DNA of 56,796 bases, the filler included, from Sphacelaria rigidula (Eukaryota), in assembly GCA_964200075.2 (NCBI GenBank). It is 6 parts of 6 records of this genome, joined end to end, with 100 filler letters (N's around TTAATTAATTAA, not from the genome) between each part and the next. Parts side by side here need not be neighbours in the genome. Positions count along the whole stretch, not along the records: positions 37,934 to 47,315 come from CAXNAA020008625.1; 5 more parts are not named here. One strand, written 5' to 3'. Shown here one piece after another: positions 37,934 through 47,315 of the stretch. The stretch's first letter is position 1. Every line of letters starts with the position of its first letter. The translations under genes and the position numbers were made by a program. A model generated the notes under the pieces. It saw only the letters and a list, made by a program, of their open reading frames with translations. It was not told the DNA's origin and made no database searches.

Positions 37934-38670
37934 GGGGAAAGCACTGTTTTAGACTCGAACCTCATCTCGGAGTTAAACCTCAATTTGCACAATTTGTTGT
38001 TATGGTCTGTGAGGGGCAGGAGTTGGTCGCCGTCCGAGACAAAATGCTCAGTGCCAGCGGGCGCCCCGACTTTAGGCAGTAATTCTGCAAGGTAGTGGCC
38101 GGTGAGGGCAGGCATACCGTTGCGGCGAACAAGCAAAACTTCTAAGAGTTGAGGCTCATCAGACAGGGTGACACCAGAACTGCCGGTGTACCGAAGGTGG
38201 TAAGCCGTTCCGGTAGCCTGCTCATTCTTTTGTAGGCTGAGGCACGATTGAGGGTACCAAAGTGTTTGAGTTGGAGTTCTCCACGAGGCGCCGACTCAGG
38301 CGATAATGGTGGAAGGGTACGGTATGTGCGTTGGTCGAAGCGCATGTGACTGTCTCTGCCAAGGAGGAGAGCATGATGCATGGTGCTATCAGGGACGATA
38401 TAAGCCCAGATTGCGAGGCTAGCCGAACGTGTATCGAGGTGAAAAAATTGCACACTAAGGCGAACAGATTTTTGTGTCGTCAAGGGTGAATTGGAGTCGC
38501 CGAAACCACCCCAAACGCGAGGTTGGGTGATGATTTCGCAGACATCGGAAGTAGGGCTAGTCTGCTTCATATGATTCCACATGGATTCTTTGACGAATGT
38601 CTATGGACTTCCGCTGTCTAACAACGAGACGCACTTGGCACGCGCGGTGGCGTAAGGGTCGCAGTGTAAT
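37934..38670 (-). pseudogene. Retropepsin-type aspartic protease region of pol, disrupted
   Basis: CVSLLDSGSP*TFVKES (catalytic D at 38616-38618, stop at 38601-38603)...WGGFG...VRLSVQF...LLLGRDS; then LVRRNGMPALTGHYL. Confidence 0.85.
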
Positions 38671-39756
38671 GCTACGTGGGTGGTGAAGGTGGCAGCATCA
38701 ACGGATACCTTACCACCAACAAGGTCAGGGCCATGTTCAGATAAGGTGAATTGGTCAGGAGTAGTTGGACTGACCGTGAAAACGGATGGCGGGTGATCCG
38801 CGGGGGTTCGAAGGTATCGATAGACATCGTGGGGGTCTGATCCGATCGTAAAGGGCAGCGTGTATTATGATTTTGTATCAATCTCGTAGATCACCAGCTT
38901 GGAATTACAAGGATCATTGTTGAATAGAGATTGCTGCGGAGTACGACAGGGGTCATCGGTGGAGGATGCGGTACCGTCTGAAAGGTCCGATTTTGGTTCC
39001 TTTGGGATACCTGGCAATGTCATCGAGCTCAAAGTCGCCGCTTTTTGGGGAGGATGAGGTCGGAATTTTCCTCTGACGGGAGGGGGACGTGTCAATGCTC
39101 GTGCTTCCGTGAGGGCATGACGACGAGGCTTCCTCTCGTGCCATGACAAATGACTGGAAACTTCCAAGACTTCTTGGGAAACTGCAACTGCGCCCAGTTG
39201 AGGTGATGTTGTCAACATTGGGGCATGCTCGGCCGAAACTTGTGGACTGTCCGCTGGCAAGCTCGGTACAAAGGGCACTGCTAAATGTGAAAGGCGACGG
39301 GTGTTGTCCGCTGTTTGTCGGGGGTAATTTCGCGGAAGAAGAGTGTCGCGAAAAACGACTACGATCAGGCCGGGCGGGAGTCGAAGGGTTTGAAGCGGTC
39401 AGTTTCGAAACATCAACACCAGAACCAGGTGAAGAAAGTCTGCTACAACCGGTGCGTGCGGGCGTTGAGGGAAGCCTGTGCCTCAACGGTCCGCGGTCGG
39501 TCTTCCCACACCTCAGATTTATACTTAGTTCCGGAGGACCAATCCTGGAGCCAAGCATAGAGCTGGATTGTGAGTCAACACAACGGTTACGCTGCGTATA
39601 TAAAGATAAAGACGGGGGTCGAGAAGAGCGGCCGTCATTAGATCTCCTGAATAGTGATGGGTGAGAACGTTTTGTCACCCGAGCGATGTTGTGTGTTGGA
39701 TGAGTCTTCGATTCTGCTGTCGGCGGCGCCGAAGACTTCACGCCGTCGTCGGCGTG

Positions 39757-42700
39757 TCATGGGTCGTTGCGATCCGTCATGAAAGAACCAGGGTTTCTGG
39801 CATTGGGGTTGTTGTTGTTGTGAGTTGGCCCTGTTCGTTGGTGATGACCATGTGAAGACTGAGAAGGGCGGAAAGCACTATCTCTATGGCGAGGACCTGA
39901 GACTGTGTTAGTGGTGTGGCGGCGGTCGCGATTTGAGTGAGAGTCGCTATGATTTTGGTAAGGCTGGCGAGGGTGGCGAGAAGGTGGAGTACACTCGCGC
40001 ATGCGTTTTTGCCATCGGCGCCACGCCTGCCTGTTGCTCTGAAGTTCAGGGTTCATGAGCGAAAATATATTGATGCAATGTTCAGGGTAATCTCGTATAC
40101 TGTGGCCAGTACCATTGCAGTTAAGACATGTGTTAGCATGGCGACGAAAAGCATCCCTGCGAGCCGAAGGCGAAAGCAAGGGGTCCACAAATGTGGGTCA
40201 TCGGTGATGAAAGCAGTCGTGGAAACGACATAAACGTCATCAAAGGTGTCTGCCGAAAAAGGCCAAGCATCGAAGCTTGCACCGAACGGGACTCTTTTGT
40301 TATGAACAGGCATGACCGATCCACCGACAGAGTTTGGTGTACAACTATTATTGGACAAAGTCTGAGTGCGTCCACGAGATCCGGAGGTACTCGTTGAAGC
40401 GGCACGCAAGGTCTACGAAGACCCAGAAAAACACTGTGCGCCACGAATGGCAGGCGTTAAATTATGTTCCTGATCTACGAACGCATTCCACATCGCGTCT
40501 ACGAAGGCGTGAGCCACTTATTTGTGCGTCAAGGCGCCCGGAAACAAAGACGGCATCAGCGTCGGAAATTGCTGAGCGATACTATTGCGAACGTATCTTT
40601 GACACATAGCATCACTAGGGCCATTTTGTCGCCCGGTACCAGTCACACTCGGCACCAAAAGCTTGAATTCGCGGAGGTAGTCAGCAAAGGGTACGTCTGT
40701 TGCCACGGCGAAGGAACTAAGGCGCTTGATGGCGCCTGCCTGATCAGACTTATCAAAGTAACCTATGAAACGCTTTTCCAACTTGCTGAATAATAACGGC
40801 GCTGGTTGCCCGCTGGCACGATCTTGGTCCATGGCGGCGAAGAAGGAATCGATCGAGAATCTGAGTCAAAGAAGCAACAACGTCAGGGGAGCGGAAACTA
40901 ATTGAGCGGTGCAAAGCCTTATGCAGCGGTGTTTGCCATCCATCAACCCAGTCGGAATCTTCGAAACGTTGTTGACCAGTCGCATCGGCCAATTTACGGG
41001 TGTTGCGCATCGTTCGACGCATTGAGGAAATGAGGGCTGATATGAACTGACCAGAGTCTTCATTGTCTGCAGCAGGCATGGATTTGATATGCCAGAGTTT
41101 CTTTACATCCATCTGTAAGTATTCTCGCTTTACGACAGCGACACGAGACGCTTCTCTACGAGTATCGGAAGCCATTTTATCCGCGGCAGCTTGGCGTTTG
41201 GCTGCGGCGGCGGCAGCTAGTGGCCGAGCCGAGTTGGAAGACAATGGGTGAGCCGAATTGTCACTACCACTATCCGTGAGACCTTGAATGCGAGCAGACG
41301 CATCAGCTAAAGGAGGCATTACTTGCCTGACGGCCGATGAGGGCATGTCGTACCGAGTTGAGGCGTGGGGGCGGTGTCGTGCAGTCGACGAACCCGAAGA
41401 CTGGTTGCCAGCCCGTTTGTGAGTGCCTCGGGTCGATCGTCGATTGTTGTTGTTAGTGCGGTGGGACCCGTGCCCACGGTGTGGTGCAGCCCCGGAAGGG
41501 TCGTCGTCAGAGTCGTCATCATCATGACGATGGCGAGGGGGGTGCGGGGTGATCCAAGCTCCATCATCGTCGTGCGGCAGTGTGTTGTGGGCTTCCCGCA
41601 TGGCGGCAAAGAGAGCGGCGACGGCGGTCTCATAATTAGAACGACCGTCCCCGGCACCAACCGTGAGATAGAGCAAGACTCGTTCCATGGTGAGAGCGCC
41701 GGGATCGTTGCGCGGGAGCTGTCCATCTTGTTGGAGAAAGGGGACGATCACACTATTGACGGGCAAAATGAGAGAGCTCCAAGCCTGCTCAGAGGCACGA
41801 AGGACGTTGTTGCAAGTGTTTTCTCCCGAAAGTTGGCGGAGCGTCCAACCAAGCCAAGCACGTTCGCTGCCCTGCAGGTGCAGCCCGGGTGTGGCGGCGG
41901 GGGGCGCCGAAATCCGAGGGACCTGCAGTGGTGCAGGCGGGGGAAGCGTAAGCGAAGCCGCAGAAGCCGCGGCAGCAGCGCGTAAGCGCGAAGACTGAGG
42001 GTCTGTTCGAGAGCCAGAAATGGCGGCGACAGGTGCCGGCTCTGCCGGCGTGATCCGGAGCAGAGGAAGATGTTGTTCTTGTTCCATGGAACGTAGAGCA
42101 GTGGTCGCGGTTTCGGTTGCGGTCTCGCATTGACGCAAACGGTGTTCATCGCGGCGTACGGAATCCTATATCTGGCCGAGCGTAGCGAGGCGTTCATTGG
42201 GGTTACGTTGAGCCGCCCGCTGGCGGCTGGATGCCGAATCAACGGCCTGGCCTTGGCGCGCCAGTCGTTCCGCGAGGTCATCCTGAAGGAGACGGGGAGC
42301 AGCGTTGTCCACCGATTGTCCGGGTGAAGGTGGCGCCGGGGCCGTGGCCGGTTCGAAAGCTTGATATTCAGCCAGAATTTGTTCCTGGTCTGCTCGGGCG
42401 CCACGAAGCCAGAGCCGGGGCGGAAGACCCGACGGGTAATGCTCGACGCCTAACAGGGGGCGATCGTTTGTGTCGTGCTCGGGGGCAGGCGCCGGAGCCG
42501 AGCCCGCGGCAGTGGAATTTGGCGCCGAAGGGACCGATCTCGCCGAAACGGCCGCGACAGGGGTGTGATCCTGATCCGTCGTGGCGGAATCCGCTGGGGC
42601 CGCCGCGCGGGGAGCGGGGGGCGTGACACGGGTGCTCTCGGCATCCGTATCGATGTCGGCTGCCGTAGAAGGGGCAGGGGCTGCGATGGGTGCAGTAGTC

Positions 42701-43950
42701 GAAGGTGCAGGGGCATTGGCCATAGTTTCAGCGGAGTGTAAGTAGCACACACGACTACTGTTCGACAGCGCACACAGTGGCAGCATCGGGATGGGGCGGA
42801 AAGGCAAGGTGAGTGCTGCTTCCGCTGCGTAAAGGTGCGTGAATATTAGCCAACGAAGCATCAACGGGCAGTCGTGAGCTCACATGTGTCTGATCGACAG
42901 ATTTAGGCCGTGAGGATCCCGTGGTTGAAGAAAGTCCCGATAACAGAGCACGTACATCATGGGCATGAGTAGTGGTATCACCGTGGTGAACAAGGTCGTC
43001 ATGATCCAAATCAAAATCAGAAGCAACATCTGAGGCTGAACGTACATCATCAGGGTCTGCAGCCAGTGGTACAGAGGCTCGATGGTTCATATTACTGTCA
43101 AAGTGAACATGATCAGAAGAAGTTGAATGTTCAACGGCTGTGTGAAACGCGGTTGCAAGCGCTTGTGAAAGGGCAGTTGTCGCCGGACCGTCAGAAATGA
43201 CAGCCGGTGATGAACGAAGCAGGTGCTCAAGAGCTGTGACTAAAGGCAAGTGCTCTGTGGAAGGCGCTTCGGAGCGGCCAAGACGCGAGGAGGATGTTCG
43301 GCGCGAGGTGCGGTGAACAGAAGTGTCCTCACGATATATGTCTTGTCGGTGCTGGCGCTGGGAGGCGTCGTAACCCTCAACACCGCAAGCGGGGGGTGAG
43401 TCAATAACCGCGGTGGGAGCCTGAAGCGGTTGGCGTTCCACAACAATGGCGACGCGTGACGACCCATCAGACATATGGGAACCCCGAGACTGAGCCCGTT
43501 GTACAACAGAGCGAGCGCGTAGCGACTCGTCGACCATGTTGGAAGTCTTGGACAGTGTACGATCCGCGACAGAGCGAGCGCGGAGCGACTCGTCGATATT
43601 GCCGGGAGCCTTGGACAATGAACGATCCGCGACAGGGCGAGCGCGTAGCGACTCGTCGATAATGCCGGGAGTCTTGAACGGTGTTCGGTTCGCAACAGAG
43701 CGAGCGCGGAGCGTCTCGTCGATAATGTTGGAAGTCTTGGGCAGATGGCGGTCGTGGTCACCAACAGCAGCCAAGTCTTGAGACGTGTAGTCGTCAGAGT
43801 TGCGAGTCGAAGCTCTGTCGGATTTCACTTCTTCGTGTGCAGGGGAAGTAATAGTGAAAGGTTTGGTTTTGAAAGGATTGATTAAAGTAAACGCTGACGG
43901 CGTAAGGATTCGTAAGTAGGCAGGGCCGAGAGGGGAATTATTTTCTGCGG
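39757..43950 (-). pseudogene. gag-like region, frameshifted, with degenerate CCHC knuckle
   Basis: Long overlapping ORFs 43828-42755, 42864-42166, 42138-40753 and 40832-40518 (FADYLREFKLLV); knuckle CLNCNGTGHSIRDY at about 40128-40087. Confidence 0.7.
43487..43738 (-). repeat. Four 63-bp in-frame tandem repeats (KT..IIDESLRARSVADR)
   Basis: Visible in both DNA and the ORF 42755..43828 translation. Confidence 0.9.
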
Positions 43951-44852
43951 TTGCGCCATGTTAAATTGAAGAAGTAGAAATGGACGCCAGAAACCCGAGT
44001 ACAAGGTTCCTGGTGGTATAATAATAGCAGGTAGTGTAGACTCGGCAGGAGATTGTAAGTACCGAGAACAAATTAAGCAGTAAAGACTGCAGAATTTTAT
44101 AAACGGAGTTACACCAAACTAGAGTAGACTGCTGTGATAATAATAATCAGCGTAATCTCGGCAATTCCGAGTACCAAAAGGCAGACAGCAGAGCAAAAAG
44201 GTGAAGATTTTGCAACGCCGAAAAGAGAGGATCTGCGGCGGAAATAAGACACCTCTAGAGAAAACTGTGTATGGGGGAGTGGGGGGGGCGCACTGAAGGT
44301 GTATCAAAGGTGTAGATAGTCGCAGAGGAACAAACTCACAGATAAACTCAGCAGTTCTCGCACGAGCGGCTTGGTGCAGGAGTAAACCCTAACAATGAGG
44401 CGACTGTGAAAGGAGACAGACAGCCGGGCAGAAGTCCAACGGGCGCGCTGTGCACGGCAAATGTGACAGGAATACGTAGTGGCCAGGCACACGCTGGACA
44501 AGGGTGTTGCAGTGGTGCAAGCAAAATACCGCACACAGGAGGTGTAGAAAAACACCACTCGAGACCGCGGAAGGAGGCACCAATACTAGTGTAGAATACG
44601 TTGCCAAAAGGGAGGCGCTGTGTAAGTATCTGTGAAATTCAAGACAGAAAAAGAATCAAAAGTGCGGCAACGAGGGTGCGAAACAGTGAACTCAAGTGCA
44701 GGGGTCCAAGAGAAGACAGCTGTAGCAGTCGACTGAAACACTAATTGTTGGTGCAGGTCAGGCGCCAAGCGGAAAAGACTACCGGGGGATACGAAATTCC
44801 GAACAAGGAATCAGGGAATCGTAAAGCGATCCAGGTAGTGGAGCACCAAAGT

Positions 44853-44908
44853 GGAAAAAGTCAAAGAGGAAAAAGTTAAAGAGGAAAAAGTCAAAGAGGA
44901 CAAAGTAG
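44853..44908. repeat. About four 15-bp tandem repeats (GGAAAAAGTCAAAGA)
   Basis: Direct inspection; lies in the retroelement leader. Confidence 0.8.
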
Positions 44909-45841
44909 AACACGCTGTGCAAGGCCAAAAGGAAGAAGGAATCGCGGATATAGTACCCGCGTGAAAGATTAAAAAACAAATGTATTCACCAGTACACGCA
45001 CAAAAGATGAAAAACGCCTCCGGGAGTGCACGACCCAAAAGTGAAAAGTTGACCACGTAGTGCTCACCCGGCGAAAAATGTAGTAGCGGGGCGGAGGTGT
45101 GATAGAAACCTGATGAGAGGTGCGACGAGAGACGTACAGCACCGAATGTATCACTTGGGTTGGTGCAGATTATCGCGCGGAAGAACAAACAGTGTGCGCT
45201 ACAGTACTCTGCACGCTGCAGCGGTGGTCGCTACTACCATAACTCTGCTGCGGCAGTCGTGACTACGCAATTGTCGCACCGAAAAAGTACGAAGACACAG
45301 CACTATAAACACAGCAGCGGCACACAAGTGTCAACGTCCGCGAGGAGAAAAGGTACAGTCGCTTTCGCCGTAAGATAGAAGCGGCGTATTCTGTAACGGT
45401 TCAGTAAGGGATAGTGTCAACTGTCCGTACAGTTTTAGAACAACCCAGCTGACACAACGTTGGGCGGGGTTGAAAAGGACGATGACAACAGAACAAGGGC
45501 ACTGCAAAGCAAGAGTGTCGCCCAACAAAAGGAGCGACCAGAACAGGAGAGGGACAAATGGCAGTTTGCAATTGTTGCTGCTGCGGCGGAGATGCAACGG
45601 AAAGAAATGCAGGGAGACAGCACCGTAGTACAGCAAAAGAAAAGCACTCTAAAAGCTAAACGAAAACGAAGAACTGTTTGAACTGCTACTAACTAGGGGG
45701 GGGAAATACAGATGAACCAAAAGTGAGGAGTAGCAAACGGGGGCTACAGAAAAAGACAGCTAGACAAGGCAACAAGGCTATGAGAATACGCGTGGGCTAC
45801 TGAAACACCAAGCAAGACACGGCCAATTAGTCGAACGCCAG

Positions 45842-46385
45842 TGTAATAGGGAGGGGTGTGAACAAGCTCCACACCCTCCTAGCTATGATCAATGTGCTGC
45901 AAGCTTCGGTAGATGCGCAAACGCGCAAGGTGTCCGAGTAAAACAAGCTGCAGCTACACACGTGCAGATTCACGTGACTGTTGGTTACAGTAGCAAATAA
46001 ACAAAAGGTAGCTCAAAGGCTTGATATCTCTTAATCTCTCACTGATTATTCCCTTGATCGCCCAGCACACTGTTCTCACCAAAGATAAACAGTAGGAGAA
46101 GATGGTCCGGCTCGAAGGGTAGCTCAGGAGCGAGCGAGGGTGCATGAGGCACGGTAGAGCAACCTACTTTTGAACTCGGCCCGGAGAGGCGTTTCGCCTC
46201 CCCGGGACTAGGGCACACCAATCTGCACACTACTCTTCCCCAGCTAGGGTACACCAGTCTGTACACCAATCTTCCCAGAGTTATGGGAGCATTCCCGTGG
46301 ACAGATCGAATAATCTGTAAACCAACCTGCCCCAAAGTTGTCTGTGGGAACAAACAACGCCTCTCTATCTTCCTTCCTCATGACA
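45842..46385 (-). repeat. Putative LTR (544 bp)
   Basis: Minus strand TGTCATGAGG...CCCTATTACA; preceded by a PPT-like GGGTGGGTGAG (46386-46396); followed by c-TGGCGTTCG; shares TT.CTC.GACACCTTG near its 3' end with the other LTR. Only one copy is present. Confidence 0.6.
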
Positions 46386-46982
46386 CTCACCCACCCAGAC
46401 GAACCTCTATTTGAGTTGCGATGAAATCTCAAGAGCAACTAAACTTGAGGCTTGTCTCACCCATCAAGTCATGAGGAGACAACACGAAAAAGAAAAGAAA
46501 AGAAAACAAGAGGGCAATGACCAGCCTGGTGCCCGATCCTCCCACACCTCAAACAAGAAAAACCAAAGGTGCCTCAAAAAGCGCAATTACGCAATTGCGG
46601 TTGACTGCGCAGGAGCACACAATACTGCTGCGAGCTAGCGAACAAACAGCGAAAGCGCACAATGCTTTGACGCGCGAGCTAGATAAAAAGCAAAGGAAAA
46701 TCCCGCAAAGGACACAGTGGTAATCTCAAGCAGGAGACAAAACTCAAGGACCCGAACATGGTCGAGTGCCAGCCAGACAAAGCGGCGGCAGCGTAGGGGC
46801 AAATGGGGCCAATGGAAGTCGTCGAAGAGGTTGATGAGGGCATAGATGAGCCGCGATAGGAGAGCCAGCGTAGGTGAAGCAGTGAAGAGTAGAGCGCACC
46901 TGAGGGGGGACGAAGAAAGTACCAGAACCAAACTGGAAGGGCAGATACAAATCGCGTTAAAGGGAGTGCGAAGAGATGGAAC

Positions 46983-47315
46983 TCAAGATGGGGCATTGAT
47001 GTCGTGGGTACGATCGATATTTCGCTGAAGACCTCGACGTAAGCCGTGTGACTTGAAGCGTTGTAGGCGCCAAGAACTGCGGGGTGCGGAAGGGCTGGTT
47101 GTGTAAAAATCGGGGCGAAGCTTGAGCTGAACTGGGCCAGGGTCGTCGAGGAAACGCACGATATACGTGTCGACCGCGAGGGCATCGACGGAGTGGATCT
47201 GACCTAGCCACCAGAGGTAATCGCTGCCCTTATACCACAAGTAGGCACCTTTAGGGAGCGGTTGTTGTTTTGCGCGAATCTTTTCGTCCCATTGTTTGGT
47301 GGGTACGAGTTCGTA
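46983..47315 (-). CDS. Probable C-terminus of Gypsy pol with a PWWP/Tudor-like domain (open to contig end)
   Basis: YELVPTKQWDEKIRAKQQPLPKGAYLWYKGSDYLWWLGQIHSVDALAVDTYIVRFLDDPGPVQLKL...*; lies about 600 bp upstream of the PPT/LTR on the element's sense strand. Confidence 0.65.
   Translation of the reverse strand, partial: YELVPTKQWDEKIRAKQQPLPKGAYLWYKGSDYLWWLGQIHSVDALAVDTYIVRFLDDPGPVQLKLRPDFYTTSPSAPRSSWRLQRFKSHGLRRGLQRNIDRTHDINAPS

Follow-up and report, generated by a model that had tools for sequence, protein, structure and literature searches.

The window, the whole stretch of 56,796 nucleotides analysed here, comes from the Sphacelaria rigidula assembly GCA_964200075.2 and is made up of six contigs of about 9.38 kb each, with N44-TTAATTAATTAA-N44 linkers at the joins. 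The contigs are placed in order of falling size (the four whole contigs are 9384, 9383, 9382, and 9382 bases) and the linkers between them carry stops in all six frames; adjoining contigs therefore have no genomic relation to one another. Contig 5 covers positions 37934-47315. At its edge, the minus-strand frame from 47315 to 46986 holds 110 stop-free codons and is followed by a TGA at 46985-46983, its N-terminus having been cut by the scaffold linker. A sequence-only reading of this locus had described an ORF open to the contig edge and had quoted a motif from it. The frame does run into the linker at the end of contig 5, and the translation is identical to the motif quoted, residues 21-58 of the peptide being PKGAYLWYKGSDYLWWLGQI, ten further residues, and YIVRFLDD. 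Length alone is no evidence for such an ORF, since 28 stop-free frames of at least 100 aa are present in contig 5. The features of the contig are:

46986..47315, minus strand: final 110 codons of the pol of a Ty3/Gypsy element (P0001), assigned from the reading frame and homology to P0153 and P0152
47256..47315, minus strand: residues 1-20, a short strand and a helix (residues 6-14) ahead of the barrel, with AF2 pLDDT of 93 over the first 10-residue block and 91 over the second
47055..47255, minus strand: residues 21-87, a predicted five-stranded Tudor-like barrel (strands 25-29, 35-43, 50-55, 61-65, and 82-86), from the AF2 model and structure matches
46986..47054, minus strand: residues 88-110, a C-terminal helix (residues 89-98) and a low-confidence tail, with pLDDT of 54-55 for the last two blocks
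46983..46985, minus strand: TGA stop codon at the end of pol, from translation
46360..46381, minus strand: candidate polypurine tract, the sole strong sense-strand purine tract downstream of pol, about 600 nt past the stop and with TG after it
43961..46982, minus strand: pyrimidine-rich non-coding stretch from the pol stop to the gag-like ORFs, from composition and the contigs of public runs
39757..43960, minus strand: gag-like ORFs, named by position only, spread over several frames and interrupted by in-frame stops
37934..38747, minus strand: pol start from this family, covering the protease end and the next segment and running off the contig end, with a frame change at about 38.23-38.25 kb

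The non-coding stretch presumably holds an LTR and a 5' leader. Across its approximately 3 kb there is just the one strong purine tract, which, judged by its sequence, is a fair candidate for the polypurine tract; a contig of the public run X6 ends close by at 46356, a weak hint of a repeat boundary. Of the polypurine tract and LTR that had been proposed downstream of the ORF, the former is thus represented by a single candidate at 46381-46360, and the latter has no pair in the window. Because the window contains no repeat pair or second LTR copy, the ends of the LTR cannot be delimited. A tRNA scan of the window for a primer-binding-site match gave 0 genes. In contigs from two of the public runs, 44630 is joined to 46047 through three other letters, and some copies are therefore without 44631-46046, a segment of 1.4 kb that may be a nested insertion in the window copy or a deletion elsewhere.

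Pfam searches with nine ORFs of contig 5 returned nothing useful, and no family for the gag-like ORFs. A zinc-knuckle-like C-x2-C-x4-H motif was recognized by eye within 40197-39757. The first gag-like ORF includes a 63-nt tandem repeat at 43443-43743, present in four copies that are 67-86% identical to the reference copy and encoding a repeated 21-residue unit.

The pol start at the far end of the contig has 48% and 60% identity to residues 1-52 and 55-127 of P0153, a predicted polyprotein, and matches residues 24-277 of a second, P0278. Residues ~55-200 of P0153 (37934-38295 of the window, minus strand) form a conserved segment of unknown fold in the gap between protease and RT, with 60% identity between the window and P0153; P0289, a third relative, instead has a NADAR domain ahead of the RT. 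Word depth, when summed, is about 30 times as high over 37934-38001 as over the remainder of the contig, and 38001-38004 is where many contigs part ways, a pattern suggestive of a border with a different repeat of far greater abundance.

Contig 5 can therefore be read as one unit's 3' end, then an LTR/leader region, then the 5' part of a further unit, an arrangement that could be a tandem or an assembly walk through the repeat. The window copy of the element is a fragment and probably inactive. Public-run contigs contain thousands of pieces of 90-99% similarity across the whole of contig 5, thus the family is a high-copy one. Within the window, tblastn and blastn found no further copy of the domain or of contig 5.

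Elsewhere in the window, the end of contig 6 (55540-56794, plus strand) holds the 5' part of a second pol, from a related Gypsy family, running off the window end. The match is to residues 24-445 of P0278, spread over two frames (E 1.9e-72), and it surfaced only when this relative's protein was used. The start of contig 6 has short degenerate CCCTAA-like telomere-type repeats near the contig end (47578-47606). In contig 1, 5727-6905 and 7722-8747, both on the plus strand, encode pentatricopeptide-repeat proteins (PPR_2, E 1.7e-15 and 2.2e-28), which are ordinary host genes.

A search among 1.84 billion proteins with the 110-residue peptide found 197 cluster representatives at E<=1e-3, 52 of them at E<=1e-10, the best being 1.2e-27. 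Two long repeat proteins, P0067 and P0141, have only short motifs in common with it and are not counted as relatives. The relatives are automatic gene predictions from short contigs and some are chimeric (P0003 and P0291). Those with a known source are from brown algae, namely P0171 from Sphacelaria rigidula itself and P0289 from Ectocarpus sp. CCAP 1310/34. The closely similar P0152 (85% identity to the window peptide) reaches 127 residues further upstream. In 50 of the 79 matches that cover the core, the domain ends no more than 13 residues from the C-terminus of the protein.

In the profile of about 150 sequences, residues conserved at 80% or more are W27, W35, W36, L37, G38, R54, D57, P59, G60, P61, L66, Y71, S81, W82, C83, L84, and Q85. 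Residues 1-20 are part of the conserved domain, with Y1 and W9 conserved. The window copy departs from the family at R83 (C in 82%) and F87 (H in 71%). Judged by its relatives, the peptide is a real conserved protein domain. Pfam has no family for the window peptide at E<=10, and for the 52 relatives there are weak matches to Agenet in three and to Tudor_2 in one. The ESM Atlas gave matches that serve as leads only (best score 0.89, all below 0.9), with KIF2A-like, Agenet, Tudor-knot, Spin/Ssty, and Tudor_3 proteins among them.

It had been proposed from position that the domain is fused in frame to an integrase lying outside the contig, and this fusion is seen in the relatives. The window peptide aligns with residues 1513-1615 of P0153 (50% identity, E 6e-34), a protein of 1618 aa from an 8.9-kb contig in which Pfam identifies RVT_1, RT_RNaseH, Integrase_H2C2, and rve. 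Among 31 longer relatives of P0152, the domain is present in 26 and the rve core in 18, and in all 18 of the latter the domain is downstream of rve, near the C-terminus. With P0153 this makes 19 predicted proteins, four of which (P0153, P0278, P0282, and P0289) are near-complete pols whose single polyprotein runs from RT through RNase H to integrase. This is the order that defines a Ty3/Gypsy pol; it is found in the relatives, and the window itself has the C-terminal domain and a pol start. Integrase and chromodomain are both absent from the window, and the fusion for the window copy is drawn from its relatives.

The relatives also have a chromodomain fold between integrase and barrel, at a site that for the window copy would be outside its contig. 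The AF2 model of P0152, built from 52 sequences (pLDDT 85.6, pTM 0.77), has three strands and a helix, a long linker helix, and then the barrel. In Foldseek the first part of this model matches the chromodomains of Swi6, Chp1, and cpSRP43, and the second part the Tudor domain found in PHF1 and in PHF19. Pfam Chromo weakly matches 22 of the 52 family members, with a best E of 5e-6. Of what we take to be the three chromodomain cage positions, read from an alignment with MPP8, only the Trp is kept, in a W-x-G-aromatic stretch. The order in complete relatives is thus protease, RT, RNase H, integrase (H2C2 and core), integrase C-terminal module, chromodomain, helical linker, and the domain of about 105 residues. 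Conservation of the barrel (0.71) is on a par with that of the chromodomain (0.75). The suggestion that the lineage encodes its own Royal-family reader is therefore borne out in that there is a barrel at the C-terminus of pol; it is not there in place of a chromodomain, as in the relatives the two are in tandem. A duplication of the integrase's own C-terminal module was considered as a source of the barrel and rejected (hhalign probability 2.2%).

The domain is also found at the ends of two proteins lacking both RT and integrase, P0012 (residues 728-828 of 828) and P0017 (508-609 of 612). The N-terminal parts of these share 23% identity, are coiled-coil and Ser/Arg rich, and belong to no Pfam family. 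In P0112, an N-terminal part of this kind is joined straight to the chromodomain and barrel. These three proteins may have arisen by deletion, be fusions with Gag, or reflect errors in gene modelling. No similarity was found between the gag of the window and the N-terminal parts of P0012, P0017, and P0112.

Modelling of the window peptide with AF2 from a 65-row alignment (pLDDT 86.4) predicts the helices and strands given above, with an insert between strands 4 and 5 that is specific to the family and with only the one helix and a low-confidence tail after the barrel. The SH3-like barrel expected by the sequence-only reading is therefore predicted, and the best Foldseek matches in the PDB are the Tudor domains of PHF1, PHF19, and MTF2, with probability 1.00, TM of 0.60-0.66 when taken on the target, 28-30% identity, and an rmsd of 1.8-2.0 A across 46-47 columns (E 8.6e-3 and worse). 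The PWWP1 domains of NSD2 and NSD3 are also matched, with probability 0.8-0.98, but their rmsd is 9-12 A. By VIA-align, on which Z below 8 is common according to the tool's own warning, the PHF19 Tudor domain has Z 6.2 and rmsd 2.0 over 56 residues of its 57-residue chain, and the top match is a bacterial TraI SH3-like domain (Z 7.4), with Spindlin at 6.7, the RDM15 Tudor domain at 6.4, and a PWWP at 6.2. There are 42 chains at Z>=5 in this comparison, mostly Tudor, PWWP, or chromo-barrel domains. A search of PDB sequences with the family profile gave nine matches, all to the Tudor domain of PHF19 or PHF1 (best E 0.0016), and among the viral structures of BFVD there were only generic small phage barrels, none at E<=0.001.

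These models support well a barrel of the Royal-family type, five-stranded and SH3-like, as in Tudor domains. The structural scores lie in a middle range, with a best E of 8.6e-3 and every Z below 8; the fold class is firm, and homology to Tudor domains is putative. Pfam PWWP is silent on the peptide (E<=10) and on the 52 relatives (E<=1), and the motif in the second strand is L-W-W-L, with no prolines. The PWWP/Tudor-like label first given to the domain thus shifts to a fold closer to the PCL-type Tudor than to PWWP, and on the predicted structures the best label is Tudor-like, not PWWP.

PHF1 and PHF19 each have a Tudor domain that reads H3K36me3 (PMC7492083). The aromatic cage of PHF1 is composed of W41, Y47, F65, and F71, with D67 and S69, and the single changes W41A, Y47A, and F65A each abolish binding (PMC7492083). 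In the HMMER alignment, Y47 corresponds to W36 (W in 85% of the family), F65 to F55 (F in 78%), and D67 to D57 (D in 87%). The equivalents of the other two aromatics are lost, W41 corresponding to position 30 (A, G, or S) and F71 to P61 (P in 88%). A complete PHF1-type cage of W41, Y47, F65, and F71 is therefore absent from the alignment, with two of the four aromatics kept, and the conserved aromatic cage that had been anticipated is present in part only: W36 and F55, together with D57. Because the cage is only half conserved, a simple PHF1-like pocket for H3K36me3 is argued against, and such a pocket as such is unlikely. It might be that Y28, on the same face in strand 1, and Y71 and W82 in the insert complete the pocket. 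On these residues, methyl-lysine reading by the barrel is plausible.

Several explanations of the domain have to be weighed. That this is a chance open frame or a host-gene exon, with no link to a retroelement, can practically be dismissed: the 28 stop-free frames of contig 5 and the silence of Pfam on the peptide would suit it, but it is contradicted by the homology results, with 197 relatives and 19 predicted proteins in one frame with integrase, and the AF2 fold is a confident one. A true PWWP, which would read H3K36me2/3 and steer integration to gene bodies and introns as the sequence-only reading had it, is improbable. The peptide has G-x3-W-x-K-x5-W-W-x-G-x-I followed by Y-x-V-x-F, which resembles what we take to be the pattern of PWWP strands 1-2 and strand 3, and the window copy has Y33 at what is presumably the site of a PWWP cage aromatic. 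NSD2 and NSD3 do appear in Foldseek, and the nearest Tudor domains, those of PHF1 and PHF19, read H3K36me3 themselves. Set against this, the family has an aromatic residue at position 33 in only 9% of cases and G in 52%, the superposition on PWWP domains is far poorer than that on Tudor domains, Pfam finds no PWWP in the peptide or its relatives, and a single short helix is present past the barrel rather than a helical bundle. In addition, the LTR elements of Ectocarpus are reported to dominate intergenic distal regions, not introns (PMC12477816).

The SH3-like C-terminal domains of retroviral integrases serve in DNA binding or intasome assembly. A barrel that aids intasome assembly or binds nucleic acid, be it target DNA or the ends of cDNA, with no reading of histone marks, is accordingly the main competitor to a targeting role, although unlikely. 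It is consistent with the incomplete cage, with two of the four PHF1 positions, and with basic residues that are conserved or common (K29 75%, R54 81%, K63 66%, R94 59%, and R98 74%). A DNA-bound PWWP (6kco, Z 6.2) and the Tudor domain of UvrD/PcrA are among the structure matches, and the title of a 2026 paper states that in the PHF20L1 Tudor domain methyl selectivity is overridden by DNA binding. However, pol already has an integrase C-terminal module of its own, for which hhalign shows no relation to the barrel, the conserved W36, F55, and D57 are equivalents of the PHF1 pocket, and the domain adjoins the chromodomain, the usual site of a targeting reader. Peptide binding is frequent among SH3-like and Tudor folds, and the presence of the domain at the ends of the non-pol proteins P0012 and P0017 would also fit a protein-protein adaptor, docking integrase or Gag to a protein of the host or element and not directly to chromatin. 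This is very improbable; it has no known partner, and the two proteins may be deletion derivatives or faulty gene models.

The preferred reading, to which a probability of about 0.6 is given, is that the frame is the C-terminal Pol domain of a high-copy Ty3/Gypsy family of the brown algae or their close kin, in which the chromodomain and the barrel are a targeting tail of the integrase. The architecture and fold described above can be held with high confidence, and the element probably carries two modules of the chromatin-reader type. That the chromodomain and Tudor-like barrel act together as such a tail is somewhat favoured. In chromoviruses, the chromodomain steers integration sites. By the same principle, the two domains would tether the intasome to nucleosomes with a particular histone state, and this tethering would bias the landing sites of new copies. 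Chromatin tethering of the intasome is the most likely role for the barrel, at slightly better than even odds, with DNA binding or intasome assembly as the main rival. More doubtful, but possible, is a specific form of this, in which a widespread brown-algal Gypsy lineage has a rigid two-reader tail, in which a cryptic Tudor-like barrel accompanies a chromodomain of reduced cage. Such a tail would read a combination of marks, or would read one like H4K20me3 or H3K79me2 as a stand-in for heterochromatin in algae devoid of H3K9me and H3K27me3. In that case the second domain would have gone unnoticed because Pfam is blind to the barrel, and the integrase would be the first to carry two distinct members of the Royal family.

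The landing site of a retroelement is set through the tail of its integrase, and a lineage with tandem readers could account for how a repeat family of very high copy number is distributed. Brown algae are reported to be without the repressive marks H3K9me and H3K27me3 (PMC12477816), and their Gypsy elements keep domains of the reader type despite this absence. A lineage with two such domains would be a natural probe of what marks 'safe' chromatin in brown-algal genomes. The domain profile itself detects elements in which annotation based on Pfam misses the last domain.

Comparison with known systems places the family among several that link an integrase to a chromatin reader. HIV integrase uses the host PWWP protein LEDGF as a tether. 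The window family is like LEDGF and the PWWP domains of NSD2 and NSD3 in having W-W in the second strand of the barrel and an integrase tied to a Royal-family reader; it differs in that the element encodes its reader in cis instead of borrowing one, in the silence of Pfam PWWP, and in a poor superposition. The likeness to the Tudor domains of PHF1, PHF19, and MTF2 is closer, as D-G-L-aromatic-aromatic-L-G-K-I and V-x-F-x-D can be aligned and counterparts of Y47, F65, and D67 are retained. The family departs from them in having an additional helix at the N-terminus, about 16 inserted residues ahead of strand 5 that include the conserved Y71, W82, and C83, and a C-terminal helix, and in the loss of the W41 and F71 equivalents.

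As in the chromoviruses MAGGY and Tf1, the integrase is followed by a chromodomain. The family is unlike them in having a second Royal-type barrel after it, and its chromodomain keeps only one of the three positions taken to form the cage. The MAGGY chromodomain is reported to target H3K9me regions, and in a survey of fusions between transposable elements and readers these were mostly Chromo and PHD (10.1101/2021.11.30.470311).

For PWWP or Tudor domains on the integrases of LTR elements, the sole direct report found in the literature is that of 2025 on Ectocarpus (PMC12477816). Four Gypsy lineages are described there, three with C-terminal chromodomains, one of these also having NADAR at the N-terminus (Gypsy-12_Ec32 is an example), and the chromodomain lineages fall outside the chromoviruses. 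The fourth, Gypsy-10_Ec32, has a C-terminal Tudor domain, is called the first transposable element with a Tudor, and has a homologue in Tribonema. The window family is like Gypsy-10_Ec32 in being a brown-algal Gypsy with a pol that ends in a Tudor-class domain. It differs, in a comparison by published description only, in that the Tudor domain of Gypsy-10_Ec32 is seen by CDD whereas that of the window family is invisible to Pfam; Gypsy-10_Ec32 is also placed in a lineage separate from the chromodomain and NADAR elements (PMC12477816).

The NADAR lineage offers the nearer parallel. P0289 has NADAR, RT, RNase H, and integrase, with the domain at residues 1282-1384 of 1398, and is 57% identical to P0153 from RT to integrase. 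The window family is therefore kin of the NADAR/chromodomain lineage, and yet P0153, P0278, and P0282 show no NADAR. In the available text of PMC12477816, the chromodomain alone is mentioned for that lineage, with no second barrel. The concept of a reader encoded in cis at the end of an integrase is thus known, and it is the tandem tail of chromodomain and cryptic Tudor-like barrel that appears to be new.
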